64,000 bases of DNA from NCBI GenBank assembly GCA_040006935.1, contig JBDTVZ010000003.1, positions 1,102 through 65,101 of the forward strand, in the 5' to 3' direction. The notes beneath the pieces were generated by a model, which worked only from the letters and a program-made list of their open reading frames with translations, did no database searches and was not told where the DNA came from. Numbering within the stretch: position 1 is the stretch's first letter; the number at the start of each line of letters is the position of its first letter. Shown piece after piece: positions 8,643 through 39,190 of the stretch. The translations under genes and the position numbers were made by a program. The stretch is from Candidatus Dojkabacteria bacterium. Its GTDB lineage: Bacteria; Patescibacteriota; Dojkabacteria; J137.

Positions 8643-8675
8643 AAGTTTATGAGACCCCTCTTTTAATTGTTTTTT

Positions 8676-9086: not shown

Positions 9087-9162
9087 ATAGGTTAATTGCT
9101 TGATTGACCCTTCAAACTCACTGTGATAACATCCTCTGGTAACTAAGTATAATGTATACTAC

Positions 9163-10014: not shown

Positions 10015-10042
10015 AATCTCCTTTGTTAGATTGATGATACAA

Positions 10043-10116: not shown

Positions 10117-10170
10117 ATGAATGAGTAATGAGAGTATAGCAAAATCTTCTTTACGATACCAGATTGAGAG

Positions 10171-13931: not shown

Positions 13932-13950
13932 AATAATTTATAATTGAATA

Positions 13951-14511
13951 TTACTTTTCTGCCAATTCTTTAATAAACTTATCCCATAGAACGCTTAGCC
14001 ACCTTTCGGAGGATTTATCATCTTTCTGTGCATTGGCTGCTATGAATTTTTGAGCTTTATTAACATCTGTAGGATCAAAAACTTTAGGATAAAACCCATC
14101 TCCAAAAGGAATATCAATTTTAGGTTCTATAACAGCTTGCTTAGGAGCAATGTTTCTTACTGCTAAATCAGAGGGGGCAGCAGGAGTTGAAACTTCTTTT
14201 GATTTTTCAACTTGCTTTTCTATTTCAAATTTTTTTTCTAAATTAGCATCAAGTTGCTTAAAAGAACTATCTGGCATTGCAGGCATCACTGGCATTGATT
14301 CTACTCCACTCGATGCTTTAGATGGGTCTATCAATTTTGTTTTTACGAAGTTATAAGCTACGTTCAAAAGGACAACTTGACCATTAGGTGCAATTACCAA
14401 AGGTTCTTTAGTTTCGCTAAGTCCAAAAAATTTAAATTCAAATTTTTCAACAGTCTTTAAAATTTCTAAGATTTTTGGATCTGTTATAGATTGAAGTGCA
14501 GTTTGATTCAT
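13951..14511 (-). CDS. hypothetical protein
   Basis: 186-aa ORF directly downstream of the virB4-like gene. No motif recognised. Confidence 0.4.
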   Translation of the reverse strand: MNQTALQSITDPKILEILKTVEKFEFKFFGLSETKEPLVIAPNGQVVLLNVAYNFVKTKLIDPSKASSGVESMPVMPAMPDSSFKQLDANLEKKFEIEKQVEKSKEVSTPAAPSDLAVRNIAPKQAVIEPKIDIPFGDGFYPKVFDPTDVNKAQKFIAANAQKDDKSSERWLSVLWDKFIKELAEK

Positions 14512-14563
14512 AAGTCGTAAATACTTTAAAACAAATACATTCTATCATCTATTTATGATTATT

Positions 14564-15016
14564 TTATCTATATTTTTTCATATCTTGCTCTATGATTCTC
14601 TTCTGTTCTCTCTCTTTTATCTTTTGTCTTTTTTCGTATTTCTTTTTACCTTTTACTAATCCAATTTCTAATTTAATTAAACCTCTGTCATTTGTATATA
14701 CTTGAAGAGGAACAACTGTGGTCCCAGCTGTTTTTAAATTTTCAATTAATTTTCTAATTTGATTTTTTTGAAGCAATAACTTTCTCTCCCTCAGTTCCAA
14801 AAGTTTATCTTGGATGAAAGAAGAAGCTAAAAGTCCAATTCTAGAACCCATTAGAAATAATTCACCATTTCTCTCTCTTATAAAAGCATTTGTAATATTT
14901 GAATTCCCGTTTTTTAAAGATTTAACTTCCCAACCAAATAAAACTATTCCAGCTTCAATCTTATCGATAACCTCATAGTTAAAGTATGCTTTTTTGTTAT
15001 TAATCAGAATTTTCAT
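14564..15016 (-). CDS. smpB: SsrA-binding protein
   Basis: KKAYFNYEVIDKIEAGIVLFGWEVKSL...LLLQK...VPLQVYTNDRGLIKLEIGLVKGKKKYEKR matches SmpB. Start trimmed to the internal Met (MKILINNKK). Confidence 0.85.
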   Translation of the reverse strand: MKILINNKKAYFNYEVIDKIEAGIVLFGWEVKSLKNGNSNITNAFIRERNGELFLMGSRIGLLASSFIQDKLLELRERKLLLQKNQIRKLIENLKTAGTTVVPLQVYTNDRGLIKLEIGLVKGKKKYEKRQKIKEREQKRIIEQDMKKYR

Positions 15017-15087
15017 ATTAGGATTATACAGCCAATACAAAAAAAACTGCACATTTCTGTGCAGTTTAACTTCATTTTATATTTCAA

Positions 15088-15828
15088 TTATCTTCTTAAT
15101 GATTCACTCGTACTGATAATAGATTGTAACTGAGAGACGATATCTTCTAGCTTCCCTCTTTCGAAATCACTTAAATTTTCTCTATTCTCTTCAATTGCAT
15201 TTTCTAAAAAATTAAGAGCATTTTCAACATAAGCCATATGCTTAATAACACCAAACCTACCACTATTCATCTCAATAAGTGATTGTATCCTCCTATCAAA
15301 AACAGCTTTTCTACCAAACATATTCAGAAGGTCTTGATTAGAATCTCCTGTTAAATTCTCAACTTCTCTTATATCTGATGCTTCAGCACCAAATTCATTT
15401 GAATATGAAGCTTTCTTTTCATCAAAAAATTCTTTTGCCCTATCACTTCCTGCAAAGAAACCTTGAGTAAAAAGAGGCGTAAGTAAAATTGCAGATGTAT
15501 CGACCACCACCTCGCTTAAAGTGTCATTTGAATTACGAATAATACTTTGCATCTCTAACTGAAGAGTATCTAATTTTTCATTAAAGTCTTGCACAGCTGT
15601 ATTTAGACTAATCACCCTTGAATCAAACAAATCTGGATTCATTGAATCATCATAAGGCATAAATTCTTGACTTAAGACTCCCATTAAAACAACTGATTTT
15701 TGATAAGCTTTATAGAGCTGTACCAATTGCTCATCTGGAGTACCTTCAAGATTCTCAAATTTTCTTATTAAAACTCCCGCTTCTTCTAAAGTTGGGCTTC
15801 TTAACGACTCTTCTACTGGCAAATTCAT
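15088..15828 (-). CDS. hypothetical protein
   Basis: 246-aa ORF with no TM and no recognised motif. Confidence 0.4.
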   Translation of the reverse strand: MNLPVEESLRSPTLEEAGVLIRKFENLEGTPDEQLVQLYKAYQKSVVLMGVLSQEFMPYDDSMNPDLFDSRVISLNTAVQDFNEKLDTLQLEMQSIIRNSNDTLSEVVVDTSAILLTPLFTQGFFAGSDRAKEFFDEKKASYSNEFGAEASDIREVENLTGDSNQDLLNMFGRKAVFDRRIQSLIEMNSGRFGVIKHMAYVENALNFLENAIEENRENLSDFERGKLEDIVSQLQSIISTSESLRR

Positions 15829-15880
15829 AAGGTAAATTTATAAATAATTAATTGATATTATAGCATTTCACCTTAGTGTC

Positions 15881-18397
15881 TTACAAATCCAATCTAATTA
15901 CTTTAGTCCCATCTAGTACATAAATTGCACTTTCAGATTGGACTACAACAACTTCATCCAAGTCACTGAAGGTTGTCGAATCACTTCCTCTATAATCGTA
16001 TTGTTTAACGAAGTTTATTTTTGCATCGTCAGAATCATCATATTTGAATAATAGAACTCTTCTATTAACCGGATCTCCGACTACAAGATTATTATCTGCA
16101 ACATCTATTGAACTGGCACCTTTTAATGCCTCAAAGTCTGTGTTTAGTAAATTAGTAAATGAGTCAGCAGTCAAAGTATTATCTCCTCCAGCTAAGTATC
16201 TTTTAATTCCTTGAGTTTTTATTAATACCCAAATATCTCTTGGAACGGAAATATCCAAGGCATTTGCAAAATCTGGATCATCTTTCCAATCTGTTTCTGG
16301 ATCTGTTGAAGGTGCTGCTCCTCCAGCAACATAGCCATCATCTTGTGCATTTCTTCTAAATATTTGCCTACTTGTTTGTCTAACTTCGTATAAAGCATTG
16401 TTACCATCATATAGAGCTGCCTCCATTGGCTTTCCTACGCTTGCTGGTGTAAGACCTGCAAATCTTTTTAATGTTGGATCTCCTCCAATGCTAAATTTAC
16501 CTACTGAGCTAGTAGCATCATTATCGTAAAAGATAATATCCCCATCTACATTCCTCACCAATAAGAAAGGTTGTGTTAATCCAGTTGCATATGCTTGTGG
16601 TTGAGCATTAAGGGCATTTGAAGCTACTTTGTAAACAACTCCCCTGGCAGAATCGCTTATGTAAAGATTTCCATTAGAATATACAATGTCCGAAAGTGTA
16701 GCATCCGGGAAATTCTTACCTACATCTGTAACTATCTTTGGGTCTATAACTGCAGTAACTAGCAGAAGATCATCCTGTCTGGACTGAACTTGTTTAGATA
16801 AGTTGTCTAACTCTGTAGTAAATAACCCGGCTCTTTGTTGTAATGAAATATCACTTGTAAGCTTTTGTAATTCATTCAAAAGTAGAGTTTTTTTCTCTTG
16901 ACCTTCGTTTTTAGCCTGAAGAATTTGTGGGGTCAAAGTATCTAAACGATTTCTTAGGTTTGTTAGTTGAGTACTGGCAGTATTAATTTTTTCTTGTTTT
17001 TGCCTAGCATCATCTGCATTTTTTATTCCAACATAAATTAATACAAGTAATACGACGACGACAACTGCCAAAATAATTCGATTTCTCCTTCTTCTTTTAG
17101 CTTTTACCACTCTATCTCTCCTATCATCCGTGCCTATAATCTCTCGTTTAAATAGTTCTAATAATTGATCTAGAACGGATTTAATTCTACTACCAATGTT
17201 TTTTAAGATTTTTGCATATGTTTTATTATTACTCTTTAAAGCTGGCACTACTTTATTTTGAAAAATACTTGAGGCTTTATTTTTAGCTAAATTAGCTTTA
17301 TTAGCTATATTTGTCATTGTTGTAGCTTCTTTAACAACTTCATAATTATTCTCATCGTCTTCAAGAACATAGTTAGTAAACTTCTTATCTTCCATAGGTT
17401 CAAGATCATCTTGGATAGTGAATGTTTCACTCTGAGAAGTTATTCCTTGTGGTTGTCGAAAATTTTTAACTTTTGTAAAAGCTTGTGAAACTAAGGCTGA
17501 AGATTTGATTTTCAGATTACTACCTACTTCCTTTACTTTATTTAAATACTTTGTTGCAGTATTTTCAGGAGCTACATAAATACTTTCATCTTGTTCGGGT
17601 TGAATCGTTGCCGCAGGCGATATATCTTCTTCCACTAAGTGATCTAGGCTTTTATCTACTTTTGGGAGTTGAGCTTCTGCATCTTCAATTGTTTCAACTG
17701 TAAGTTCTTTATCTACCATTGCGGTCTCTTCCTTTGGCATTTCTGTTTGTGGAATAAACCACTCTGCTTTTTCATCTGCTAATATTAAGAATGCAGCTCC
17801 TGTTATGGTTTCTAATTCTTTTAATTTAGAAATATTAAGTTCTTCTAATGTTTCTTGAATAATAAACTCGCCTTTTTCTATAGATTTTGAAGTACCTAAA
17901 CACAGTCTATCTTCCTCTTTTAACTCAACACTTCCAGTTTTAAAGAACCCGAGCATATTAGAATCTACTAGGCCTTTAGAAAGCTCTACAAACTTATTTG
18001 CTCTTTTAATAAAAATCTTGCTCTCGCCTACAACGGCTAGATAAGCAATATTATTTTCGACTACTACAATTGCCATTTCTATGTCTAAACCCTCTTCCGA
18101 AAGACTAGGCTCACGAGACAAAACGTACTCCATCTTGGATTTCATTTTCCAGACAGAATCTTCTAATTTCTCAATATTATCTGTAAATTCTTTTTTTGGA
18201 TTAAAGTAAGTGCCTTGAAGCTCATCTAGAAGAATTTTAGCTATATTCTCAAGACTATATTCGTCTTTCTCTACTGCTATTCTCACTGTTACGAACATTT
18301 CTGCATTAGAAGAGGTATCGTCAGGTCTATATCCATAGACGCCAGACCACTCATTCTCTTTCAATTTTCCAATAAGGTATTCTGCTTTTAATGTCAT
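15881..18397 (-). CDS. large single-pass membrane protein with extracytoplasmic repeat (NHL/beta-propeller-like) C-terminal domain
   Basis: 838 aa. Central TM helix RIILAVVVVVLLVLIYVGI preceded by a basic stretch (KAKRRRRNR). Coiled-coil region after the TM. C-terminal segments such as NGNLYISDSARGVVYKV and NNLVVGDPVNRRVLLFK look like NHL-type repeats. The N-terminal cytoplasmic domain is unassigned. Confidence 0.5.
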   Translation of the reverse strand: MTLKAEYLIGKLKENEWSGVYGYRPDDTSSNAEMFVTVRIAVEKDEYSLENIAKILLDELQGTYFNPKKEFTDNIEKLEDSVWKMKSKMEYVLSREPSLSEEGLDIEMAIVVVENNIAYLAVVGESKIFIKRANKFVELSKGLVDSNMLGFFKTGSVELKEEDRLCLGTSKSIEKGEFIIQETLEELNISKLKELETITGAAFLILADEKAEWFIPQTEMPKEETAMVDKELTVETIEDAEAQLPKVDKSLDHLVEEDISPAATIQPEQDESIYVAPENTATKYLNKVKEVGSNLKIKSSALVSQAFTKVKNFRQPQGITSQSETFTIQDDLEPMEDKKFTNYVLEDDENNYEVVKEATTMTNIANKANLAKNKASSIFQNKVVPALKSNNKTYAKILKNIGSRIKSVLDQLLELFKREIIGTDDRRDRVVKAKRRRRNRIILAVVVVVLLVLIYVGIKNADDARQKQEKINTASTQLTNLRNRLDTLTPQILQAKNEGQEKKTLLLNELQKLTSDISLQQRAGLFTTELDNLSKQVQSRQDDLLLVTAVIDPKIVTDVGKNFPDATLSDIVYSNGNLYISDSARGVVYKVASNALNAQPQAYATGLTQPFLLVRNVDGDIIFYDNDATSSVGKFSIGGDPTLKRFAGLTPASVGKPMEAALYDGNNALYEVRQTSRQIFRRNAQDDGYVAGGAAPSTDPETDWKDDPDFANALDISVPRDIWVLIKTQGIKRYLAGGDNTLTADSFTNLLNTDFEALKGASSIDVADNNLVVGDPVNRRVLLFKYDDSDDAKINFVKQYDYRGSDSTTFSDLDEVVVVQSESAIYVLDGTKVIRLDL

Positions 18398-18475
18398 GCA
18401 ATAGTGCTAAAAATAGGTACGCTTATACAGTATATAATCATTATCCTTCAATTTGAAGTAGTATTTAAAAAGTTT

Positions 18476-18718
18476 TTATCCAATCGGAAGTATTATTATA
18501 AAAATCAACACACTGGCCAGAACGATAGTGTACACCAAGGCTACAAAATTCAGAAAGAATTTATCCGGTGTTTTTATAATATTATTCATCCTCAACATTT
18601 GCCTGACTAATATTAAACCGGCGAGTAAGTGGACAAGTGCAAATACTATTGCAGCTATACGGACTATTTGGATTGCGGAAGAATTAAAATTAAGCTCCAT
18701 CTCTAAAAGTTCTAGCAA
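18476..18718 (-). CDS. possible small two-TM membrane protein
   Basis: 80-aa ORF with two hydrophobic helices, sitting in the gap between the 838-aa and PH-domain genes. It overlaps the 3' end of the upstream gene. Weak support. Confidence 0.25.
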   Translation of the reverse strand: MLELLEMELNFNSSAIQIVRIAAIVFALVHLLAGLILVRQMLRMNNIIKTPDKFFLNFVALVYTIVLASVLIFIIILPIG

Positions 18719-19364
18719 TTCTTGCTAGGTCTGAAATAATATCTCTAACTCTTGTAGGGTTAGCAATAAAGAAAAAATGAATTGTACCGTTACTATTTTC
18801 TGTTGTTATATCTACATTACCATAATTAAAGAAACTTGAAAGTACTCCAGGTGAATTTTGTTTTACACTTTCAATATTTTCTAAAGGAATTTCGTCTACA
18901 GAATAAGATGCGAAAGTTTTTAGATTAAAGTCCAATACCCTCTCATTTGTAACTATATATGTGTCGAAATACCAGTCAATGAAGTTTTTAAATGCGTTTG
19001 TAAATATGAATGAATAATATGCAAGTATAATTACAATGTAGAGCCTTAAACTTAACTCAGGGAGTAAAGGACTGAAAATGTTAAATACGACTGCAAATAT
19101 TATTGGAATTAAAGAATAGAAGATCGTCGAAACAATCCAACCAAAATTCCTTAACCAATGCCTCCTTGCTAAAATATAAATTCTTTCGTCAGGGTTTTGA
19201 CCATCAAATTTTGCTAAAGGTTTTAATTGAATGCTACTAAATCCCCAGCCTTTTTTTTGAGGTACAACACTTTCCATTTCTTGCCTCAAAGCTTGTTTCA
19301 TTTGAGCTCTAAGACTAGTTCTGTCTTCTGAAGAGAAAGTGGATGTTGTAGGTATGTTTGACAT
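18690..19364 (-). CDS. bacterial PH-domain (YdbS/YdbT-like, bPH_2) membrane protein
   Basis: Two TM helices, then a membrane-flanked PH-like region (YIVTNERVLDFNLKTFASYSVDEIPLENIESVKQ). Its start overlaps the stop of the upstream gene (ATGA). Confidence 0.5.
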   Translation of the reverse strand: MSNIPTTSTFSSEDRTSLRAQMKQALRQEMESVVPQKKGWGFSSIQLKPLAKFDGQNPDERIYILARRHWLRNFGWIVSTIFYSLIPIIFAVVFNIFSPLLPELSLRLYIVIILAYYSFIFTNAFKNFIDWYFDTYIVTNERVLDFNLKTFASYSVDEIPLENIESVKQNSPGVLSSFFNYGNVDITTENSNGTIHFFFIANPTRVRDIISDLARIARTFRDGA

Positions 19365-21115
19365 TACTGGACTTCTAAATAAAATGTTTGACTATAAATA
19401 TAATCATATGTTCCCATATCCGATGCCCAAGAGTTCCAAAGGTTTTTAAACCACCAACCTCCTAAAGATCTTGAACCTCCATTTGGCCCTGTAAACCAAA
19501 CTTTTTTAACTCTTTGAGATGGATCTCTTTCAAATGAAATTGATGAGATACTACCTCCGATATCACTGATTATAGAATTTAAATAAGACTTTGTCGAATT
19601 GTCGTAATAGTTTGTTGAAGCATTGTATAAAATCATACTTTTTACTCCATCCAAGTTATGCTGATTTGTTGTTGCTTGCCAATATGTATAATAAGTTGCT
19701 GTTGCTAAACCTGTATCATTTACTGATCTTAAATAAGGCAGAGCTGCTCCATCACCTTGTAAGTTCTGAAATATTGTATCGTTATTTGCAGTACCATTCC
19801 CTTGGCTATTATCTGCTGAGTAAAGTGCTTGAATTATAGAACCTCCGTAAGTTAATACTTGACCTCTAGTCTCATCCGCTGCCCATTGAGCATAATGTGT
19901 ACCATTATAAACTTGAGATCTCGCATCTGAATGGAGGAATCCAGCATTATAAATACCATAAGTTCTAAATGCTACAGCTTGTGCCTTAATAGCCTCTTCG
20001 GGCCAACAGCTCCAACCAGATCCATTATCTAAAGCATATTTAGCAGGATTTTGATTTACTTGGTCTTGGTTTCCGCAAGCTCGTCCAGGAACTTCGCCCT
20101 CGCCTGCAACATAATCTTCAATGTTGATAGAACCATATCCTTCAACATTCACAGCACTATTCTCGTAACCACCGACTACATTAACTCCTGTGTAATAGAA
20201 TCTAAGTATATCTTGATATCCATAGCCTCTCGAACCCATCCCATGTGCTCCCCATTGGCTCATTCCAACTCCGTGACCTTGATATAAATCTCTACCTTGG
20301 CTTCTAAATATAAATCCGCCATTTACTGGAATAGAAGGAGTTACTTGTGGCGGTGGATTGGCAAGGATTTGATCTTCCCTTTGCCTTGCTGCTTGTTGTG
20401 CTGCTTCTAATCCATCAATATTCTGTTGAATATTTTGAATTGATGCACCCAGACTATTAGCTTCTGCACTTCCTGAAGCTAATGCACCATTGTAATACGC
20501 AATACGATCTTCTAATTCTTTTTTCTTACTGGCAAGAGTTACTTTTAAATCTTCTAATTCTTTTATTTTACTATCGTAACTATCTATATCTGTAGAGAGT
20601 TTTTTTAAGTCAGATGCTATTGAAAAAATATTTCTTTGCTGTGCACCTGTTAGACTACTTGAATATTGCTCTATTTTTTTATAATCGAATTCTGTATTTA
20701 TAAATTGACCTAAGTCTAATCTGTTACCGCGCCAATCCATATAGGAAGTCTTCAGTGTTTCCTGTTGATCTATTTGCCTTTGCTGCCTTTCTAATTCTTT
20801 AAGTTTTTTACCTTGCTTAGCCACATCAAGCTCAAGTGTTTTTGCTTTAATTTCGGACTCATTTTGTTCTAACTCTGCCTGTAATTTAGGTAATTCTCCA
20901 GTAGTGGCATCAATAGTTGCTTGATAGTCCTTAAGCGTACTTTGAAGTTGGGCTAAATCATTTTGTGACTGAGTTAGTTGTTCTTGTTGTGCTGCAATAT
21001 CGTCTGCAATTTCCTGCGAAGTTTGTGCAAACGAAATAGGACTGATTGCAAATATGGTAATTGCGAAGAAAGCTCCTACAATAGTCACTTTTGTTTTAAT
21101 ATTTCTAATTTTCAT
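19364..21115 (-). CDS. SpoIID/LytB-domain cell-wall remodelling protein with N-terminal signal peptide and long coiled coil
   Basis: C-terminal YQGHGVGMSQWGAHGMGSRGYGYQDILRFYYTGVNV matches the SpoIID/LytB signature (GHGVGMSQxGA...IL..YY.G). N-terminal TM/signal, then a coiled coil of about 200 aa. Confidence 0.7.
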   Translation of the reverse strand: MKIRNIKTKVTIVGAFFAITIFAISPISFAQTSQEIADDIAAQQEQLTQSQNDLAQLQSTLKDYQATIDATTGELPKLQAELEQNESEIKAKTLELDVAKQGKKLKELERQQRQIDQQETLKTSYMDWRGNRLDLGQFINTEFDYKKIEQYSSSLTGAQQRNIFSIASDLKKLSTDIDSYDSKIKELEDLKVTLASKKKELEDRIAYYNGALASGSAEANSLGASIQNIQQNIDGLEAAQQAARQREDQILANPPPQVTPSIPVNGGFIFRSQGRDLYQGHGVGMSQWGAHGMGSRGYGYQDILRFYYTGVNVVGGYENSAVNVEGYGSINIEDYVAGEGEVPGRACGNQDQVNQNPAKYALDNGSGWSCWPEEAIKAQAVAFRTYGIYNAGFLHSDARSQVYNGTHYAQWAADETRGQVLTYGGSIIQALYSADNSQGNGTANNDTIFQNLQGDGAALPYLRSVNDTGLATATYYTYWQATTNQHNLDGVKSMILYNASTNYYDNSTKSYLNSIISDIGGSISSISFERDPSQRVKKVWFTGPNGGSRSLGGWWFKNLWNSWASDMGTYDYIYSQTFYLEVQ

Positions 21116-22638
21116 TATGCAAAATTTATTAAAAGAACTTGTCGAGATTGCATTAAATTATTTACAAAATCTAAGATTTCCTGAACAAAGTTACAATTTA
21201 CAATTAAAATTGGTAATAGGTTAGTATTTACATTTACTGACCCACTCTCTCTACCCATTTGTTCTAAAATTTGTGCTTCTAACTCTGGCTTCATTTTACC
21301 TTCTAAACTAAATTCTATATTTTCTTTTTCTATTTTTAAGATATCAACTTCCCTTCTCTTTTTATAATATTCTTCTGTATTAATGCTTTTTGATTCGATC
21401 TCTTTCAATTTAGAATCTGTGTCTATTTGTTCTTTTAAAAGTTTTGTCTTTCCCTCAGATAACTGTGTCAAATTCTTATCTCCTAGTCGTGTGTTCATTG
21501 TTGTTTCGATAAGAGATAACTCACCTTGCAATGCGTTTACCCATGCTGTGTTTAGAATCAACCTATTTTCATCTAAATCCATTTTAGGTGATAGTTGATT
21601 GTTCGAATCAACATCTACATCATCATTGGTAAACCTACCTTCATATCTATTAGCATACCTATTGATGTTCACTAGCAACATCAATACTAGCAAAGTTACA
21701 GCACTAAATAATCCTATAAATAATTGTACCAGTTGAAGTGTAATTATAAAAAATAGTAATGAAAATATACATTGCAGAACTACAAGTGCAACCATCCATT
21801 TTGCTATGAATAAAGGCATCTCTGGGCCTTCTTCTTCTATGTTTCTACCTGGAGTTTTTTTTACAGTTCGAAGATTTGAAGCTAACATTTGTGATCTGCT
21901 TTCTTTTATTTTTTCAACTTTTTGTGAGATTGTTGAGTCCGTTGTAATATTATTAAATTTTGTTAGCTCTTGTTTAATTCTATTCTGAGATTCTATAAGC
22001 ATATTTACCGACGAGAGTTTATCGTCGATAGCTTTCACTTCACGATCTATTCGTTCTTTATCTTTTTTAATTTCTTCTTTATTTTTCTTCTCATTTTGAT
22101 AAGAACTCACCTCAACTTCCATATTCTTTATCTTGACGCTTACTTCTCTATATCTAACTAACTTATCTGATTCTTCCTTGGAAAGTCCCTGTGAAGCTTG
22201 AGTTACAAGGGCTTCTATATTCCCGTCAGGTGAATTATTGATAGGTAAAAATTTTGAAGTTAATTCAGCTAAATTTGTAATTCCTGCTTTATTACAATCG
22301 AGGATTATTTCTTTCCAGGATTCATTATTAATATTCAAACCTGTTTTTTCTGAAAGGATTTGATAGATATTCCCAGGAGTTTCGATACTATTTACAAGAA
22401 TTTTCAGGGTTTTTGTTTGATAGTCCTTTACAAGAGTAATTTTTTCATTTAGTAATTGCATTTCTATTTCCGATGTTTGAATTGTATTGGTTTCTGGGAA
22501 ATTAGTTAGCGAAATTAAATCATTAACTAAAAAAACTAACTTAGAAGATGGAGATAATGTATTTCGAAAATCAATTTCAAAAGTCTCTGATTGTGTTATG
22601 ACTACTCTATATTTTGATATAGACAAAGAATAAGTCAC
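21115..22638 (-). CDS. hypothetical coiled-coil membrane protein
   Basis: 507 aa. Central hydrophobic segment (LFIAKWMVALVVLQCIFSLLFFIITLQLVQLFIGLFSAVTLLVLMLLV). Flanking K/E-rich coiled-coil regions. Its stop overlaps the downstream start. Confidence 0.5.
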   Translation of the reverse strand: MTYSLSISKYRVVITQSETFEIDFRNTLSPSSKLVFLVNDLISLTNFPETNTIQTSEIEMQLLNEKITLVKDYQTKTLKILVNSIETPGNIYQILSEKTGLNINNESWKEIILDCNKAGITNLAELTSKFLPINNSPDGNIEALVTQASQGLSKEESDKLVRYREVSVKIKNMEVEVSSYQNEKKNKEEIKKDKERIDREVKAIDDKLSSVNMLIESQNRIKQELTKFNNITTDSTISQKVEKIKESRSQMLASNLRTVKKTPGRNIEEEGPEMPLFIAKWMVALVVLQCIFSLLFFIITLQLVQLFIGLFSAVTLLVLMLLVNINRYANRYEGRFTNDDVDVDSNNQLSPKMDLDENRLILNTAWVNALQGELSLIETTMNTRLGDKNLTQLSEGKTKLLKEQIDTDSKLKEIESKSINTEEYYKKRREVDILKIEKENIEFSLEGKMKPELEAQILEQMGRESGSVNVNTNLLPILIVNCNFVQEILDFVNNLMQSRQVLLINFA

Positions 22639-22733
22639 CCTATTTTAATTATAATAGTTAAAGTGCATATATATTCTACCGCAATGAAAGTATTGATGCT
22701 AGTAGTTCGTTAAGAAGATAGTCAATTTTTATA

Positions 22734-23486
22734 TTATTCGTTAGAGATTCTTTCTAATTTCCAAATATTGTTCTCACATCTGAAGATATAAGTCTTTGTG
22801 GCTGTTGTGCAGGTCTGAGGATCACCATTTGTTGGACAAGCAAGTCCTGTTAAGCTTCCAATGGAAGAGCTAGATAAGCTTGTTCTTGTCAAATCATCGC
22901 ATGAAGCGAACTGTGATCCATTTGGATCTGTACATAAATCGGTGAAGAAAAATTGGAAACCAATTCCAATGTTATTACCTCCAGTTAAACCTTGATAGCA
23001 TTTGACTTGATTATTTACTCCAAGAAGTTTGAATATCGTAACTAGTATTGGAACAGCAAGGAAAACCAACATAAATCCAATAATATAATTAAGAATTCTC
23101 TTTCTAATTTCTGTAATTTTAGTTACATCTCCTCTTGAGATTAAGTATTGATAACCCAGGTAAACTAGTAATAGGAACGAAAATGTGGCAACTATTGCCC
23201 ATATTGCATACACTACTCTAACAAAAAGGACTTCCAACTCCTGGAGTGCGGGTGGTTTTAAAACAGCCTTTATCCTAACTCCATCTTCATCAATACAATA
23301 AAACTCTCCTTGTGCAGAATCAAATTGAACTGTTGCAGAAATCAATGTTCCGTCTTGTTTAAAACATTGATAGCTACTGGCATTGTTCCCGGAAAAAGGG
23401 GCTTCCTGTATTTGTGCTTTTACTACAGGCGATATGAGTGCGAATAGAACAAAAAATGCTACTGAAGTCAGTATAGACTTTCTCAT
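22734..23486 (-). CDS. pilin-like two-TM protein paralog 1 (signal peptide, Cys-rich N- and C-terminal ectodomains)
   Basis: Signal peptide. TM - LISRGDVTKITEIRKRILNYIIGFMLVF - TM core shared with the five downstream paralogs. Cys-rich C-terminal tail. Confidence 0.5.
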   Translation of the reverse strand: MRKSILTSVAFFVLFALISPVVKAQIQEAPFSGNNASSYQCFKQDGTLISATVQFDSAQGEFYCIDEDGVRIKAVLKPPALQELEVLFVRVVYAIWAIVATFSFLLLVYLGYQYLISRGDVTKITEIRKRILNYIIGFMLVFLAVPILVTIFKLLGVNNQVKCYQGLTGGNNIGIGFQFFFTDLCTDPNGSQFASCDDLTRTSLSSSSIGSLTGLACPTNGDPQTCTTATKTYIFRCENNIWKLERISNE

Positions 23487-23968
23487 AGGTTAGGCTTGAC
23501 TGTATTTGGAATAACGTTATTGATTTCGTTTAAATCTCCTCCAACACTTGCGTTAAAGAATGCAAGGATAATAACTATTCCAATAATACCAATGAACAAA
23601 GCAGCTATACCTATAAATACAGATTTAATAGCTTTTTGTGCTTCTTGAATTTTTGTATCGTCACCTTCACTCCTAATGTATTTGATTGCAGCTCTTATAA
23701 TTATGTAAATTGAAACTACAATAATACCAATGAAGATTAATTGTAATGCTAATCTTACTAGGGAAACTCCTGCTCCAACAGCAACCGATCCGTCAACTTG
23801 ATCTCCGCACAATGTACCTGCTCCAAAGCCTAGGTTTTGAATAAATGGAAATATTGTACAAATCAAATTCTGTGCATGGACTGGCATTGCAAACAATATA
23901 TTATTTAAACTGAACAATGAAAATACTAATGTTGAGATTGCAAATATTTTCTTTGAGATATCTTTCAT
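23483..23968 (-). CDS. pilin-like two-TM protein paralog 2
   Basis: Signal peptide. TM1 - IRSEGDDTKIQEAQKAIKSVFIGIAALF - TM2. 4-nt overlap with the upstream gene. Confidence 0.55.
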   Translation of the reverse strand: MKDISKKIFAISTLVFSLFSLNNILFAMPVHAQNLICTIFPFIQNLGFGAGTLCGDQVDGSVAVGAGVSLVRLALQLIFIGIIVVSIYIIIRAAIKYIRSEGDDTKIQEAQKAIKSVFIGIAALFIGIIGIVIILAFFNASVGGDLNEINNVIPNTVKPNL

Positions 23969-24034
23969 GAATTGTTAATTAAAATATACTTTTATTTATA
24001 TTATAAGAATTATCCTGTCAATGTCAAAAAGAAT

Positions 24035-24403
24035 TTACAAAGGAATGGTTACTCCTGGAGGAACAATGGGAGTTGTATTAATAATTCCCCCTGCTCCAAA
24101 GAATGCTATGACCACTACAAGTCCGATTAATCCAACGAATATGAGCACTATTCCAATAAATACGCCCTTAACCATTGAATATCCTTCTTGTATTTTAGTA
24201 GGATCCCCTTCACTTCTGACAATCTTTAGAACAGCTTTAACTACAATGACAATTCCATAAATAATAATAATGGCAAATATAGAAGCCATACCTATTCTTA
24301 ATAAACCTCCAATACTTGTAAAATTCCAAAAAGGTGAGTTTAGAAATTGAGTACAACCTAATAATCCACATCCAGTTTGATTATCGAAAAACATTCTACT
24401 CAA
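24035..24403 (-). CDS. pilin-like two-TM protein paralog 3
   Basis: TM1 - VRSEGDPTKIQEGYSMVKGVFIGIVLIF - TM2, with a Gly-rich C-terminus. Confidence 0.55.
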   Translation of the reverse strand: MSRMFFDNQTGCGLLGCTQFLNSPFWNFTSIGGLLRIGMASIFAIIIIYGIVIVVKAVLKIVRSEGDPTKIQEGYSMVKGVFIGIVLIFVGLIGLVVVIAFFGAGGIINTTPIVPPGVTIPL

Positions 24404-24469
24404 TTAAAAATTATAAATTAAGAATTATAAGAAGGACTAAAATTCTAGAACCTTTATAATCCCTCATTT

Positions 24470-25009
24470 TTAATTTTGTGAGCTTAAACCGCAAACCTGA
24501 GAAGCAAACGTGGTAGGGTCTTCTCCAGCCGGTGCATTAAAATATGCTTTGAAATAATATTCATACTCTGTATTTGGGCAGCCACTGAACATTTTAGGCC
24601 AATTGAAAATACTACCTATTCCTAATACAAATCCAATTACTGTTAATAATATTGGTATTAAAAAAGTTAAAGCTACGCCAACTAAGCTTGCCTGGATCTT
24701 TTTGTACGACTCTGATAATTTTTCAGGATCTCCTTCACTCCTTACTGCATCTAATCCTGCAAGAAGAATTCTAACAATCCATAGAATTATAACTAAAATG
24801 ATAATTACACTCCCAGCAAATGTGATCCAAGAAAGTACAGTGAAGTACTGGGGATTTATAGAACCAAAAACTGGGAAGAAAGGAATTATAATCGGGTCTA
24901 TATTTAATTTATTACCGGTGATATCTAACGCCTGTGCGTGAAGAACTAAAGGTGAGAAAATAGACAATGAGCCTAAAATTGTTAAGAGCGTTTTCTTTAA
25001 ATTTTTCAT
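24470..25009 (-). CDS. pilin-like two-TM protein paralog 4
   Basis: Signal peptide. TM1 - VRSEGDPEKLSESYKKIQASLVGVALTFL - TM2. C-terminal tail with two Cys. Confidence 0.55.
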   Translation of the reverse strand: MKNLKKTLLTILGSLSIFSPLVLHAQALDITGNKLNIDPIIIPFFPVFGSINPQYFTVLSWITFAGSVIIILVIILWIVRILLAGLDAVRSEGDPEKLSESYKKIQASLVGVALTFLIPILLTVIGFVLGIGSIFNWPKMFSGCPNTEYEYYFKAYFNAPAGEDPTTFASQVCGLSSQN

Positions 25010-25011
25010 TT

Positions 25012-25641
25012 TTAAGTTATAACAATTTCTGTACCTGTATTGGTAACATTAAGATCATTCAAATTCCCAATTCCTAATACTGTTGCTACAAATTGGATTA
25101 TAAATATAAATGACCAAGCAAGTATAAACCCAATTATTAAATTTACAATCTCCTTGTTTATTTTTGAAATATCATCACTTGAAGTTACTCCTGGTCTAAT
25201 TACTGCACCAAGATAAGCTCCTCGAGCTAAAGCATATATTGAAACTATTCCTAAGAAAGTTGATATTATTGCATTAATTAATGAAGGTATGCTTCCAGAT
25301 GAGAATGAAAATTTTGTTCCAAAAATATTAAAGGATCGAATTAAGCTTGCATCCCCAGGATCTATTGTCCCGATTGTACCCCCTCCATTACATTTATTAG
25401 AGCAACAAATTGTTTGTGGATTTAGGAATTTCGCATTTGAACATGAAAAATCGGGAACGTAGCAATTTGTATCGTTTTGGGATTTACAAGCAGTTGGACA
25501 TGCATCTGGTATTCCAAAGGGTGCCTGGCAACCAGCGGGGAATCCTGAATCTGCATTGATTTTATTTACGGATTCGAAGGATAATAGCGCAAAGAAAAAT
25601 ATGCTTAACAAAAGAATACTTTTTGAATATCTTTTAATCAT
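25012..25641 (-). CDS. pilin-like two-TM protein paralog 5 (Cys-rich N-terminal ectodomain)
   Basis: Signal peptide. Roughly 80-aa Cys-rich region (CQAPFGIPDACPTACKSQNDTNCYVPDFSCSNAKFLNPQTICCSNKC). TM1 - IRPGVTSSDDISKINKEIVNLIIGFILA - TM2. Confidence 0.5.
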   Translation of the reverse strand: MIKRYSKSILLLSIFFFALLSFESVNKINADSGFPAGCQAPFGIPDACPTACKSQNDTNCYVPDFSCSNAKFLNPQTICCSNKCNGGGTIGTIDPGDASLIRSFNIFGTKFSFSSGSIPSLINAIISTFLGIVSIYALARGAYLGAVIRPGVTSSDDISKINKEIVNLIIGFILAWSFIFIIQFVATVLGIGNLNDLNVTNTGTEIVIT

Positions 25642-25650
25642 ATTTATTAA

Positions 25651-25959
25651 TTAACCTCCAGATAAACCTAATCCTTGTACTCCTATTAATCCTGCTACAA
25701 AATTTACAATTGTTGGTGCAAGAACTGCCAATACAAAACCAATTATTGCAGCAATGATGATTTTTCTCGCACTCGAAACTTGCTCTGCATTGTCTCTAGC
25801 AGTTAAATACTGAAAAGCTCCAAATAAAAGCATTGCTGCAAATGTTAATAAGAACACAGGGACAACTAATCTTGTAATGGCGTTAATAATATCTTCTAAA
25901 TTATTGAATACAGTGGGGTTTGGGATTTGAAAAGCTTTTCCACTATTAGTTACGTCCAT
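25651..25959 (-). CDS. pilin-like two-TM protein paralog 6
   Basis: 102 aa. TM1 - LTARDNAEQVSSARKIIIAAIIGFVLAV - TM2. Most diverged member of the array. Confidence 0.5.
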   Translation of the reverse strand: MDVTNSGKAFQIPNPTVFNNLEDIINAITRLVVPVFLLTFAAMLLFGAFQYLTARDNAEQVSSARKIIIAAIIGFVLAVLAPTIVNFVAGLIGVQGLGLSGG

Positions 25960-25982
25960 ATTATTTTATTAAAATCTAGATT

Positions 25983-28571
25983 CTATTTAATTTCTTTAAC
26001 TTCAAGTCCACTAAAGTAAACATCGTTTCCTGATTTTAGTCTACCTTGAATTATTAAGTTTGCCAATATATCTTCAATGTTATCTTGCACAACTCTCTTT
26101 AATTCTCGGGCACCATAGATTGGATTGTACGCAAGTGCTGAAAGTTCTTCCAAAGTTTTTTCATCCCAGAATACAGACATACCTTTTGTTTCAAGGTTAC
26201 GATCCAATGCTTTTAGATTAATTTCAACAACCTCTTTGATCTCTTCTTGATTTAAGGACTTAAACATAATTAATTTATCAAATCTGTTTAAGAATTCGAT
26301 TCTGAACTCCTTTCGAAGAATTGGTGCGGTTTCTTTAAGGACTTCATTATATTTTTCCCCCCTCTCAATTAATTCTGCAATTTGTTCGGATGCGGCATTG
26401 GATGTCATTATTATGATTGTATTTGTGAAATCTACTTTTCTACTCATGCCATCAGTTATCGATCCTTCATCTAGTACTTGAAGGAATAAATCTAGAACTT
26501 TTTTATTAGCCTTTTCAATTTCGTCTAACAGAATTAGTGAATATGGTTTTAATTTAACAGCATCCGTTAGATAGCCTCCCACAAAATTACCACCATTATC
26601 AGTATAACCAATAAGCCTATTCAAGTTTGACTCTTCTTGGTATTCGGACATATCTATTCGAATCATTAAGTTTGAGCTACCATAATAAACGTCCGCTAGA
26701 GTTTTTGCGGACTCGGTTTTCCCCACTCCTGTTGGACCATAAAATAAGAAACTCGCTACCGGTTTTTGCTTGAAGCCACTAAGTCCTGACCTTGCTCTTC
26801 TGATTGCCATAGCGATACTTTTAATCGCATCGTCTTGACCCACGACTCCTTCATGCATGGTATCTTCCAGCTTCATTAATCGTTCGGATTCTCCTTGATC
26901 CACTGTTCCTATATTTATTCCCACTTTACTAGAGATTAATTGCTCTGCGATTTGATTATTTAGGTAATTAAGCCCTTGGCTTTTTGCTAATAGTATTGCT
27001 TCCTCTAAAAGATCGATACCCTTATCTGGCATTGATCTTTCGGCTTCAAATCTAGGAGCGAATTCAACTATTTTTTTAATTGCACTTACCTGAACTTTAA
27101 TTCCATATTTATTTTCTAGCTTATCTAATTCGTCTACTAGGATTTGCTGAGAAAGATAACTTGAAGGTTCTTTAATTTCGACAACTTCGAAAAGAGATGC
27201 GAGAGACTTTATGGGTTTAATGTATTTATTGTAAATTGTAAGGTTACTTGTCGCTATTAACCTTAATTTAAGCGCATCAATAGCATTAACTAACAGATTT
27301 ACTACTTCCATCCGACCTTCTTCTCGTATTGACATTACTTGTCCTATCTCTTCTAAAACTAGGATAATATTTCCTGAATTTTTTACTTCCTCTAAGCATT
27401 TTTGAATTATTGCTTTGAAACTATCTATAGAGCCTGCTTTAGTTAAAACCTTATTAAGATCAATGGTAATTAATCTCGAATCCTGAAGGCTGGCTGGAAC
27501 ATCCTCTACGCTCATTTTTGTAGCAAGATACTTTACAAGAGTGGTTTTACCAACGCCAGGTTCTCCAAGTAATAGACATGCCGCTCCTGAACCTTTTTGA
27601 AGAATTCTTAGAAAGTTAGATATTTCGATTTCACGTCCTATCGAAGTTGTAAATTCACCTTTGGCAGATCTCGCAGTTAGGTCCTCTGAGTAAATATCCA
27701 AAGTTGGGGTAGCACGAGAAGTATATGACCGGTTGATAGGGCCTGTGGGTTTAAGTTTAGAAATAATTTTCCATCTTTTGTAATAATTTTCTTTTCTTAA
27801 TTCGTTTTTTTGCCAAACTTCAAGTGAATTAATGTCTAATTCGTTTACTCCAAAGCTTAATAAAGCACTTTTTAAAACTCCTCTACATAAAACAAAGAAC
27901 ATTGTTACCACATCGATTTTGTCTCCTCCTAAAAATATTGCTTCTTGAGTACTAGCTACTAAAAGACCAATATAATTGGAAGTGAAAGTGCAATCAATCG
28001 TTTGCAAATACGACATGGATTTCTGAATTATATTTGAAGAATTTACCCCTAATCTTTTCTCAATCAGTTCCCGAAGATTTGAATGATTTAATACATACGA
28101 AATGAAAATTTTAAGAAAGTCTTTTTCAGATTCAAAGTATAAGTTATCTAAAACAGTTAAAAGTTCCACGGTCAAAAATTCATTTATAATCAGTCCATTT
28201 CTTTTTCCTTTAGTTGCCCTATCCAACTCTTTTGGTAAGTTTGTAATTCGATCAGAATCGAGAAATTCTTCTCTATTTCGTTTAAGGAAGAGTCCATAAA
28301 GCCCTACTGGCATTGCCATATAAGCTAAGAGATATTCAAAAGAGCTGGGGAATAAATAACCTTGTAAATCGAATCCAGTAAAAAATATTGTTATAAAAAG
28401 ACTAGATAAAATAATTAATATAGCTAAAACAACAAGTGCGTTACCAAAACTTTTTTCAATAGTAATTTTATTCTTTAGCCCCCCTCTATCTTTAAATAAA
28501 TGAGATAAATCTATCCGGACATCTACCCCATTAACTGTTCCTATTTTTTGAGTTCCTCTTAATATTTTCAT
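25983..28571 (-). CDS. Clp/Hsp100-family double AAA+ ATPase (ClpC/ClpB-like) with N-terminal transmembrane extension
   Basis: N-terminal region of about 100 aa with two hydrophobic helices. Clp_N-like repeats follow. D1 Walker A LLLGEPGVGKTTL preceded by DLTARSAKGEFTTSIGREIEI. D2 FLFYGPTGVGKTE...RLIGYTDNGGNFVGGYLTDAV...LLDEIEKA. Confidence 0.75.
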   Translation of the reverse strand: MKILRGTQKIGTVNGVDVRIDLSHLFKDRGGLKNKITIEKSFGNALVVLAILIILSSLFITIFFTGFDLQGYLFPSSFEYLLAYMAMPVGLYGLFLKRNREEFLDSDRITNLPKELDRATKGKRNGLIINEFLTVELLTVLDNLYFESEKDFLKIFISYVLNHSNLRELIEKRLGVNSSNIIQKSMSYLQTIDCTFTSNYIGLLVASTQEAIFLGGDKIDVVTMFFVLCRGVLKSALLSFGVNELDINSLEVWQKNELRKENYYKRWKIISKLKPTGPINRSYTSRATPTLDIYSEDLTARSAKGEFTTSIGREIEISNFLRILQKGSGAACLLLGEPGVGKTTLVKYLATKMSVEDVPASLQDSRLITIDLNKVLTKAGSIDSFKAIIQKCLEEVKNSGNIILVLEEIGQVMSIREEGRMEVVNLLVNAIDALKLRLIATSNLTIYNKYIKPIKSLASLFEVVEIKEPSSYLSQQILVDELDKLENKYGIKVQVSAIKKIVEFAPRFEAERSMPDKGIDLLEEAILLAKSQGLNYLNNQIAEQLISSKVGINIGTVDQGESERLMKLEDTMHEGVVGQDDAIKSIAMAIRRARSGLSGFKQKPVASFLFYGPTGVGKTESAKTLADVYYGSSNLMIRIDMSEYQEESNLNRLIGYTDNGGNFVGGYLTDAVKLKPYSLILLDEIEKANKKVLDLFLQVLDEGSITDGMSRKVDFTNTIIIMTSNAASEQIAELIERGEKYNEVLKETAPILRKEFRIEFLNRFDKLIMFKSLNQEEIKEVVEINLKALDRNLETKGMSVFWDEKTLEELSALAYNPIYGARELKRVVQDNIEDILANLIIQGRLKSGNDVYFSGLEVKEIK

Positions 28572-28897
28572 ATTTGAAATCTCAGAAAGTTAATAATTTG
28601 CAATGGAAGGATCAAAGGAAGTGAAAATAGGAAGATAAATATTAATACATTCGGAACAATAAAAATAAAACTAACTACACTACCACTTGCAATCCACCAT
28701 AACCTGATTATTATTCCTAAAAATTTCCCCAGGGATGAACTATCTTGATATAAAGGTTTTCCAAAATTCTTGGCATTAGGCAATGCATTGGTTACATTGA
28801 GTAGATAAGAAAAACGAAGCGTAACATGATCTCGAAAGAAACCAAGAACAAAAATTTGATAGTACCAAACAAAGAAATTTAGAATATATTCTTTCAT
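28568..28897 (-). CDS. small polytopic membrane protein (translationally coupled to the Clp-like gene)
   Basis: 109-aa hydrophobic ORF. Its stop overlaps the start of the Clp-like gene by 4 nt. First gene of the long minus-strand string. Confidence 0.45.
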   Translation of the reverse strand: MKEYILNFFVWYYQIFVLGFFRDHVTLRFSYLLNVTNALPNAKNFGKPLYQDSSSLGKFLGIIIRLWWIASGSVVSFIFIVPNVLIFIFLFSLPLILPLQIINFLRFQI

Positions 28898-29014
28898 TTA
28901 TAGAGTTTATTAATACGTCAATTGTACAGGAAATTCTTATGCTTTTGTATACACTACAATCCTTTACAGAATTTACTGAGAAAGGTATAATTCGGCTTAT
29001 ATTACATACTGATA

Positions 29015-29500
29015 ATGGAAATAAGAATTTTAGATAATATACTATTTGATGATTATAATGTTACAGAATTTACTGATAATCTTCAGTTGAACTTAGATAC
29101 CTTAAGCAAATTTCTTCCATTTAAAGGATTTAACAATCACGAAAGCACTTTATTAAACGCGCTCGCAAGTCTCTTACATAATTCTCACATACCTTTAAGC
29201 TCCTTAGGCCTAAGGAGTAATCCATTTACTGACCATATGAACTTTATAGGATTTATTCTAAACGATTCTATACAAGCAAGCGTTGAGTCTAATGAAGAAG
29301 CACAGGAGTTATTTTTCAAAATATTTAGAGATATCCGACAGTTCTTCACATTCATTGCTAAACATCCAGAAAGTAAACTTACAGAGGAACAACTAAACAT
29401 TGTTACCGGATTAATCCTAAAACCACTTAAAGAAATGGCAAAATTATTAGAAATTGATTCCGAAAGACCTTTACCTGATATAGCTGAAAATCAAGAATAA
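29015..29500 (+). CDS. hypothetical protein
   Basis: 161-aa ORF, divergent from the cluster. No motif recognised. Confidence 0.4.
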   Translation: MEIRILDNILFDDYNVTEFTDNLQLNLDTLSKFLPFKGFNNHESTLLNALASLLHNSHIPLSSLGLRSNPFTDHMNFIGFILNDSIQASVESNEEAQELFFKIFRDIRQFFTFIAKHPESKLTEEQLNIVTGLILKPLKEMAKLLEIDSERPLPDIAENQE

Positions 29501-29568
29501 AAAAGAGTCCCAATCTCTCAGGACCCTCTTCTCGTAACTCATTCACACATAATCTAAACCTCTCTAAT

Positions 29569-31218
<1,650 letters not shown>

Positions 31219-38332: not shown

Positions 38333-39190
38333 TTATTCACTCTTTTTCAATTCTTTCTCCATATTTATTAGATTAATTCTATTCACATACAGCTGCTGCA
38401 ATACTCCAAAAGTACCTTGTGCAATCCAGTATATGCTTAATCCTATCGGGAATCCCCAAGCCCCGAATATTAATAATGCTGGGAATAAAATCATAGTCTG
38501 TTGAGTTGTTTGAGTTACAATATTGCTAAAATCGTCTGGAGAATTTGGATCTTTTTTCTTTTCTGTCTTCTTTTTTGTATCCTTAGAATATTTTTCTCTC
38601 AATTCTTTCATCTGTGCTTGACCTTTAAAACTCAACTTCATAGAAGCATATTGGATAACTCCAGCAAGTACTACAAATATTACATACGGAAGGATGACTA
38701 ATAGATTATCGAATCCTATACTACTCCCAGTTTTACTTAAATCTACAATTCCAAAAAAAGATGAATTGAATGTGTAATTATCTGCAAACCTAGGGATGAA
38801 ACTGTAAGCTAAATTATTAAAACTAGAAGCTCCTTGGCTGAAAATATCTCGAATAACGTGATCTATATTGATGAATAGTATTAACTGAATTATTAAAGGA
38901 AGGCAACCACCCAAAAGTGCTGGCATGTATTCAGAATTAGCTTTCATCAGTTCTTCATTTTGCTTTTGCTTATCGTTCTTATACTTTTCTTTAATCTCTT
39001 TCATCTTATCGTTTGCCTCCATATTTTTCCCTAACATTTGAGACTGTCTTACAATCACAGGAAACATTATCAGTTTTGATATTAATGCTATTGCAATAAT
39101 TGATAAGCCTAAATTCTCTGAGAAAAATCTATAGAAGACTACAATTAGATTATAAATTGGCTGGTAGAAGAAAATTGTAAAAATGTCCAC
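38333..39190 (-). CDS. yidC: membrane protein insertase YidC (short form)
   Basis: 285-aa polytopic protein with a conserved YidC/Oxa1 core (hydrophilic helix followed by 5 TM). Its C-terminus is basic, K-rich. Confidence 0.75.
   Translation of the reverse strand: MDIFTIFFYQPIYNLIVVFYRFFSENLGLSIIAIALISKLIMFPVIVRQSQMLGKNMEANDKMKEIKEKYKNDKQKQNEELMKANSEYMPALLGGCLPLIIQLILFINIDHVIRDIFSQGASSFNNLAYSFIPRFADNYTFNSSFFGIVDLSKTGSSIGFDNLLVILPYVIFVVLAGVIQYASMKLSFKGQAQMKELREKYSKDTKKKTEKKKDPNSPDDFSNIVTQTTQQTMILFPALLIFGAWGFPIGLSIYWIAQGTFGVLQQLYVNRINLINMEKELKKSE

Follow-up and report, generated by a model that had tools for sequence, protein, structure and literature searches.

We report here on six tandem genes at positions 22734 to 25959, on the minus strand, of a 64,000-nucleotide stretch of the 213.5-kb contig JBDTVZ010000003.1 (positions 1,102 to 65,101; GenBank assembly GCA_040006935.1) from a Candidatus Dojkabacteria metagenome-assembled genome. 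The whole stretch, hereafter the window, is AT-rich (GC content, ~33%) and densely packed with genes. The six genes are named p1 to p6 in array order, 5′ to 3′ on the minus strand, and correspond to locus tags ABI721_03995 to ABI721_04020, as assigned by homology search. We hold with high confidence that they are paralogous members of the Patescibacteria family PF18895, "T4SS_pilin" (T4SS, type IV secretion system). The array is a fresh example of an already described, functionally unsolved kind, the tandem putative pilins of Patescibacteria. There is a somewhat better than even chance that the products are six specialized subunits of a T4SS-dependent, pilus-like surface structure. The Patescibacteria, a very large radiation of epibiotic bacteria, are for the most part uncultured; in the sole genetically tractable species, T4SS genes and a pilin array are essential.

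Of the six paralogs, p1 (25651 to 25959; 102 aa; loop, LTARDNAEQVSSARK) is the shortest and the closest to a canonical T4SS_pilin. The product of p2 (25012 to 25641; 209 aa) has a signal peptide, an N-terminal ectodomain of ~85 aa that contains its 8 Cys, a hairpin core at residues 110 to 196, and a degenerate loop. That of p3 (24470 to 25009; 179 aa) has a signal peptide, a hairpin core at residues 50 to 136, and a C-terminal tail of ~40 aa that contains its 2 Cys. p4 (24035 to 24403; 122 aa; ABI721_04005, P0001) begins with TTG, lacks a signal peptide in this genome, and has the sequence CGLLGC at its N terminus; an alternative ATG start 3 codons in, at 24394, gives 119 aa, matching the NCBI record. 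p5 (23483 to 23968; 161 aa) encodes a signal peptide with cleavage between VHA and QNLIC, two invariant Cys, and a hairpin at residues 60 to 142 with the loop IRSEGDDTKIQEAQKAIKS. p6 (22734 to 23486; 250 aa), which carries the NCBI name "pilin," encodes a signal peptide, a small beta N-domain (2 Cys), a hairpin at residues 80 to 154 with the loop LISRGDVTKITE, and a Cys-rich C-terminal domain of ~90 aa (6 Cys). Outside the hairpin, p2 and p6 thus have 8 Cys each; the count is 2 in each of p3, p4, and p5 and zero in p1.

The intergenic gaps from p1 to p6 are 9, 2, 66, 66, and −4 nt, the last being a 4-nt overlap of p5 and p6, and they suggest that the six genes are co-transcribed. The 66-nt gap upstream of p5 holds a putative sigma-70-type consensus, TTGACA-16-TATAAT (24000 to 24027, minus strand), recognized by consensus match only and the sole 12/12 match within positions 21000 to 29600. 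An identical 12/12 site precedes the p5 ortholog in one close relative (locus L005) and is not present in more distant loci. It is a possible internal promoter for p5 and p6. Apart from this single site, terminator and promoter scans of the locus were mostly at background.

Hydropathy analysis found two strong hydrophobic segments flanking a charged loop in 6 of 6 products and an extra N-terminal, signal-peptide-like segment in p2, p3, p5, and p6. In a leave-one-out test, a hidden Markov model (HMM) built from five cores retrieved the sixth in every case, with E values of ~7e-8 to 4e-13 (listed individually, 6.6e-8 for p2, 1.8e-14 for p3, and 7.8e-11 for p4). None of the other 95 open reading frames of at least 60 aa in the window matched these HMMs at an E value of ≤10, so the similarity among the six genes is not a chance product of hydrophobic composition. 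Core identity between paralogs is 22 to 44%, with p4 and p5 at 44%.

Against PF18895, which has a curated gathering threshold of 26.6 bits, p1 (47.7 bits; E value, 1.6e-12) and p6 (33.4 bits) score above the cut-off, and p2, p3, and p5 give subthreshold matches of 16.7, 18.7, and 17.7 bits, respectively. The Pfam scan returned no match for p4, which is tied to the family only through its paralogs. An hhalign comparison of p1 orthologs with p5 orthologs (probability, 92%; E value, 6e-7) joins the group with the RSEGD loop to the canonical group, and PF18895 is matched by 18 of 26 p5 orthologs, with a best E value of 6.8e-7. The array shows the PF18895 architecture, in which a signal peptide, where present, is followed by transmembrane segment 1 (TM1), a short charged loop, and TM2, in a core of ~70 residues. 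The NCBIfam model NF045849 (Mbov_0395 pilin-like) was also matched by p1 (32.2 bits; E value, 6e-8; model positions 5 to 79 of 80) and p6 (16.4 bits), both under its curated cut-off of 40 bits; these sequence matches suggest a distant relationship rather than membership.

The charged loops are VRSEGDPEKLSES in p3, VRSEGDPTKIQEG in p4, IRSEGDDTKIQEA in p5, and LISRGDVTKITEI in p6, with degenerate versions in p1 (LTARDNAEQVSSA) and p2. The loops of p3, p4, and p5 have the consensus V/I-R-S-E-G-D-x-x-K-I/L-Q/S-E, that of p6 reads L-I-S-R-G-D-V-T-K-I-T-E, and the alignment of p5 orthologs contains the invariant YIRSEG...KAIK. The array motif is a Dojkabacteria-specific form of the family-wide PF18895 loop, [ST]-x-G-[DN]-x-x-K. 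Standard PF18895 thresholds miss this RSEGD subfamily, which comprises 4 of the 6 genes here, and published counts of array size are therefore probably underestimates.

A first-pass annotation, made from the sequence of the window before the present searches, had described six related tandem genes with the order TM1, charged loop, TM2 over exactly this span, and the leave-one-out HMMs bear this out. The loop motifs that it quoted are present in p3 to p6, with p1 and p2 as the two degenerate cases, and the two paralogs that it called Cys-rich are p2 and p6. Its statement that the motif could not be assigned to a described family gives way to the PF18895 assignment. Its proposal of a two-TM hairpin with outward N- and C-terminal parts agrees with hydropathy, the positive-inside rule, and AlphaFold2 models.

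The loops contain 3 to 6 Lys or Arg each, compared with 0 to 2 in the 15-residue outer flanks of the TM segments. This distribution and the signal peptides indicate a topology with the N terminus out, the loop in, and the C terminus out. Signal peptidase I-type sites, A-x-A followed by Q, can be read directly from the sequence. Neither p1 nor p4 has a signal peptide in this genome or in its two nearest relatives (loci L005 and L012), and the orthologs of both genes in other Dojkabacteria have a typical signal peptide ending in A-Q; the signal peptide of p1 and p4 has been lost in this subclade. The short N-terminal tail of these two proteins would then be translocated independently of a signal peptide. 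AlphaFold2 models, computed with ortholog alignments as input, show helical hairpins for p5 (pLDDT, 70; helices at residues 60 to 99 and 104 to 142) and p6 (pLDDT, 76; 80 to 116 and 121 to 154). The p6 model also has a confident small beta N-domain (39 to 76) and a C-terminal beta unit (223 to 249), with a Cys-rich linker that is modeled poorly. The predicted helices, at ~35 to 40 residues, exceed what is needed to span a bilayer.

Related loci were collected by way of p5 orthologs (n = 27; 23 from GTDB species genomes and 4 from assemblies). Twelve nonredundant Dojkabacteria loci have the same six positions, with order and length pattern unchanged (~100 to 160, 200 to 290, 175 to 200, 115 to 175, 145 to 200, and 245 to 300 aa for p1 to p6, respectively), and more distant genomes have arrays of 6 to 10 genes. 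Every locus long enough to show one contains an array of 6 to 10 genes, and 23 of the 27 loci are full or nearly so. Between orthologs at each position, the cores are 43 to 63% identical and the outer parts 18 to 38%; core identity is highest for p6 (0.63), followed by p5 (0.59). The number of Cys is conserved position by position, with 6 to 12 in p2 orthologs, and 36 p6 orthologs share the invariant residues C41, C64, C163, C185, C217, C226, and C237.

Relative to the two nearest relatives, the nonsynonymous substitution rate (dN) is about twice as high in the ectodomains as in the cores (0.37 versus 0.16 and 0.46 versus 0.20). The corresponding ratio to the synonymous rate (dN/dS) is ~0.1 to 0.3, but dS is saturated even at this distance (1 to 4 or undefined), and what can be used from this comparison, which the first-pass annotation had proposed, is the dN ratio and the lack of any sign of positive selection. 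The ectodomains and their cysteines are vertically inherited under purifying selection and are not a hypervariable or interchangeable repertoire. Since the ectodomains differ between paralogs yet are conserved between orthologs, we regard the genes as a fixed set of six specialized subunits: the Dojkabacteria array comprises six co-inherited, differentiated subunits, as opposed to a variable cassette. "Hypervariable," the term applied earlier to the ectodomains, is apt between paralogs and fails between orthologs, which are alignable and keep their cysteines; "interchangeable" is contradicted by the same six genes in 12 loci, the merely twofold ectodomain dN, and the low dN/dS.

A search with the six-core profile, as the first-pass annotation had advised, turned up an unexpected relative. 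When 1.84 billion representative proteins were scanned in full with HMMER, 25,541 clusters matched at an E value of ≤1e-3. The top matches are single polypeptides with 2 to 10 tandem pilin hairpins, several of them with exactly six. One example, P0196 (552 aa, six hairpins), is encoded at L036:1777-3435, among the single pilin genes of an array, and its gene can be translated with genetic code 11; others are P0197 to P0200, P0212, and P0255, and all are continuous, repeat-like sequences. The parts of the Patescibacteria pilin literature consulted here contain no mention of fused multihairpin pilins. Covalent fusion implies that neighboring hairpins lie side by side with alternating topology, and the fused versions constrain any assembly model.

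For the array itself, we propose the following mechanism. The products would be inserted into the membrane by Sec and YidC (the window encodes a YidC at 38333 to 39190) and then cleaved by signal peptidase I before Gln, and disulfides would form in the p2 and p6 ectodomains. Hairpins drawn from this membrane pool would be packed side by side, as the covalently fused proteins with 2 to 10 hairpins suggest, into one heteromeric pilus-like or conduit-like structure. By analogy with VirB2 and VirB4, the genome's T4SS ATPases would extract them from the membrane. The loops would line the interior, and each paralog would expose its own N- and C-terminal ectodomains on the outside. Candidate bulk subunits are p1 and/or p5: p1 because it is the minimal, ectodomain-free form, and p5 because of its highly conserved core and the perfect sigma-70 consensus, the sole one in the locus, that precedes it. 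The Cys-rich p2 and p6 might serve as contact or adhesin subunits in the interaction with a host cell.

The association with a T4SS is drawn from published Patescibacteria arrays, essentiality in Southlakia epibionticum, VirB4-positive Dojkabacteria in a published table, and a coupling protein-like ATPase encoded ~9 kb downstream of the array. Quinonero-Coronel et al. (2025; PMC12102498) ran PF18895 and related profiles on 3,035 Patescibacteria genomes and found VirB2-like pilins in 1,948 VirB4-positive assemblies, near virB4 in 1135/1948 and away from it in ~40% of assemblies. They reported 441 arrays of 2 to 11 pilin genes with a mean identity of 25%, notably in Microgenomatia and Saccharimonadia. 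At least two Dojkabacteria assemblies in their Table S1 are flagged VirB4-positive, and the VirB4 ATPase may therefore be encoded elsewhere in the genome. Epibiotic growth of S. epibionticum was shown to require the predicted pilin genes of its T4SS cluster (Wang et al. 2023; PMC10633639), and a 2025 review describes their products as six structurally conserved, sequence-divergent VirB2-like pilins and treats a pilus as an intriguing possibility (PMC12857230).

Several results weigh against a T4SS-dependent pilus. A reference alignment was assembled from 8 annotated VirB2/TrbC genes, each located between virB1 and virB3 on MPF_T plasmids, and the VirB2 query sequence was 99% identical to annotated virB2 genes. 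Compared with these 8 sequences in hhalign, the six cores, the p5 orthologs, and the p1 orthologs gave probabilities of only 0.2 to 0.3%, the small profiles limiting sensitivity. PF04956 (TrbC/VirB2) was matched by p1 only, at 14.0 bits (E value, 0.06) against a cut-off of 27.9. Sequence searches of the PDB with a six-protein profile and a p1-ortholog profile found only chance TM matches (e.g., phospholamban, opioid receptors, and PsbW). On this sequence evidence, the six proteins appear to fall outside the TrbC/VirB2 family, and their likeness to it is one of topology; the hairpin fold is too simple for fold evidence to inform on kinship with VirB2. The suggestion of a VirB2/TrbC-like pilin in the first-pass annotation accordingly survives in PF18895 membership, the NCBI name, and the literature (PMC12102498, PMC10633639, and PMC12857230), and homology to VirB2/TrbC itself could not be shown.

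The neighborhood weighs on the same side. Pfam and NCBIfam searches recognized no virB4, virB6/PrgH, virB3/PrgI, or TrsD in the 64-kb window, although very divergent versions may escape such searches. Two large neighbors were considered as VirB4 and rejected: an 838-aa protein has no P-loop, and an 817-aa protein is VirD4-like, of the type IV coupling protein (T4CP) kind. The array does not adjoin virB4 and other T4SS genes in the manner of S. epibionticum SEML1_0006 to SEML1_0019. With no VirB4, VirB3, or VirB6 in 64 kb, the T4SS link comes from family membership and the literature and not from the local neighborhood. Filament formation is unproven for any PF18895 protein (PMC12857230), and fusions of 6 to 10 hairpins are awkward for a classical helical pilus of one subunit.

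These points give some weight, short of making it probable, to the explanation that the six proteins assemble into a hetero-oligomer that stays in the membrane and does not depend on a T4SS (for example, a ring of six subunits, a channel, or a scaffold). Such a complex would anchor small disulfide-bonded surface domains and never be extruded, "pilin" being a topological analogy. Undetectable VirB2 homology and the missing virB4 are as expected for such an assembly, and the array lies, in conserved synteny, between chaperone genes and cell envelope genes (SpoIID-like and bPH). A fusion of 6 to 10 hairpins, with 12 to 20 TM helices in a single chain, resembles a polytopic membrane protein more than a pilus subunit, and the number six is constant across the Dojkabacteria loci. 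Yet PF18895 genes occur inside T4SS clusters in Saccharimonadia and many other classes, more than half of the VirB4-positive assemblies having them near virB4 (PMC12102498), the pilins are essential together with T4SS genes (PMC10633639), and the predicted helices are longer than a bilayer span. For these reasons we prefer the T4SS-dependent structure.

A related view, which we think rather improbable, is that PF18895 hairpins are unrelated to VirB2 and arose independently in monoderm ultra-small bacteria, as an obligate heteromer of six subunits or of a multiple of hairpins. Its stoichiometry would be set by the six-gene array, here and in Southlakia, or by the fusion of 6 to 10 hairpins. If true, this would mean a new kind of surface conduit or contact organelle, with differentiated, Cys-rich ectodomains that recognize the surface of the host.

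Very unlikely, in our estimation, is a variation system, taking up the first-pass idea of interchangeable subunits, in which the six genes encode alternative major subunits that can stand in for one another, being expressed singly or exchanged, and that alter specificity or evade recognition. The ectodomains are wholly different between paralogs, p5 has its own upstream promoter-like site, and an analogy with the tandem VirB2 genes of Bartonella and Anaplasma has been offered (PMC12102498). But one-to-one orthologs at all six positions, conserved Cys, and purifying selection across the class contradict such a system, as does the co-transcription suggested by the short gaps. The tight packing leaves little room for silent cassettes (no dedicated repeat search was made), and the tyrosine recombinase gene of the window (9163 to 10014, plus strand) is 12 kb off.

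Holins, other phage or mobile element membrane proteins, and type IV or Flp pilins are hardly credible and, as identities, effectively refuted (PHROGs for holins; Pfam and direct sequence reading for Flp and type IV pilins): small two-TM proteins with a charged loop superficially resemble class II holins, and p3 has one weak PHROG match to "membrane protein" (E value, 0.0018), but the six proteins have no matches to holin PHROGs, the context is a housekeeping chromosome conserved across a bacterial class, the A-x-A sites before Q are of the signal peptidase I and not the prepilin peptidase type, there are two TM helices, and the Flp, TadE, and N-methylation Pfam families had no matches among the six.

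The genes around the array are conserved in order in two related loci (L001 and L003). The upstream part of this synteny comprises genes for an FtsA/PilM-like protein, a ~700-aa protein, GroES, GroEL, a small TM protein, and a ClpB-like AAA+ protein; after the six pilins come a ~500-aa TM and coiled-coil protein, a SpoIID/LytB-domain protein, a bPH protein, a ~840-aa bitopic protein, SmpB, and a ~817-aa ATPase. The ClpB-like gene (25983 to 28571, minus strand; 862 aa) lies 23 nt upstream of p1 and encodes a membrane-anchored, ClpB/Hsp100-like double AAA+ protein (AAA_2, AAA, and ClpB_D2-small). Its usual N-domain is replaced by an N-terminal region of ~300 aa with TM segments at residues 36 to 70, and it overlaps by 4 nt the gene for a 109-aa TM protein (28568 to 28897, minus strand). 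Its position next to the array is the same in L001 and L003. It may be part of a GroES-GroEL-ClpB chaperone block and not necessarily linked to the array.

The conserved block downstream of the array (11478 to 22638, minus strand) was defined by Pfam, NCBIfam, and synteny in the same two loci. Three of its members are large conserved envelope proteins, of 507, 583, and 838 aa. The first (21115 to 22638, minus strand) is a coiled-coil protein whose TM helices lie centrally, and the second (19364 to 21115, minus strand), also coiled-coil, has a SpoIID/LytB peptidoglycan-remodeling domain and is a possible VirB1 analogue. A bPH membrane protein (18690 to 19364, minus strand; Pfam/NCBIfam) and the 838-aa bitopic protein (15881 to 18397, minus strand) follow; the latter lacks a Walker A motif, and its C-terminal part gave only weak, chance-level matches to LRP6 beta-propeller chains. 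Further members are a 246-aa protein, a 186-aa protein, and SmpB (14564 to 15052, minus strand), which is embedded in the block; the tmRNA gene (39416 to 39862, minus strand; Rfam RF00023; 51.5 bits) lies 24 kb from SmpB.

The 817-aa T4CP/VirD4-like ATPase (11478 to 13931, minus strand) contains Walker A and B motifs and matches TraG-D_C and DUF87. An N-terminal TM segment and a DUF8128 domain of ~350 aa accompany a P-loop domain of the VirD4/TraG type, and PF26449, PF10412, PF02534, and PF12696 are found in its orthologs. The ATPase is unusually conserved, with 55 to 89% identity across Dojkabacteria, Doudnabacteria, and related groups. Farther away, a tRNA cluster at 7048 to 10117 contains two tRNA-Met genes and a tRNA-Ile gene (anticodon TAT) around a GH25 lysozyme gene (7213 to 7992, plus strand), which is interleaved with the cluster, and the tyrosine recombinase gene. 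UAU-anticodon tRNA-Ile is uncommon in bacteria. The region may represent an integration hotspot or a remnant.

The closest known systems are the Patescibacteria arrays of S. epibionticum ML1 and TM7x (the latter a "Sec secreted array"; PMC12102498, PMC10633639, and PMC12857230), which belong to the same Pfam family and phylum. They share with the present array tandem divergent paralogs, at a published mean identity of 25% compared with 22 to 44% for the cores here, and the signal peptide and two-TM hairpin; S. epibionticum shares the number of six members as well. Unlike that of S. epibionticum, the array described here lies outside a recognizable T4SS cluster, no virB4 having been found in the 64 kb. 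A GroES-GroEL-ClpB-like block stands before it, and SpoIID-like and uncharacterized envelope genes come after it, a setting unlike that of published arrays in T4SS clusters; 4 of its 6 genes are under both the Pfam cut-off and the published detection criterion of an i-E value of <0.001 (PMC12102498).

With VirB2/TrbC (PF04956; the T-pilus, pKM101, and RP4), the array shares cleavage before Q, two helices, a short basic loop, termini outside, and a small core. It differs in its large, paralog-specific, Cys-rich ectodomains, its monoderm host, its unproven filament, and its lack of adjacent virB1 to virB11 genes, whereas genuine virB2 sits between virB1 and virB3. Mbov_0395 of Mycoplasma integrative and conjugative elements (NF045849), the best NCBIfam match of p1, is likewise small, with two TM segments, and belongs to the T4SS of a monoderm bacterium; its gene stands alone in a mobile element, while the array here is chromosomal and has six genes. 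The VirB2 genes of Bartonella, Anaplasma, and Rickettsia (cited in PMC12102498) are likewise tandem divergent paralogs, proposed to diversify surface contacts. They encode bona fide VirB2 homologues in bacteria pathogenic to eukaryotes, and their variation is believed to serve immune evasion; unlike them, the six paralogs described here are stably inherited under purifying selection.

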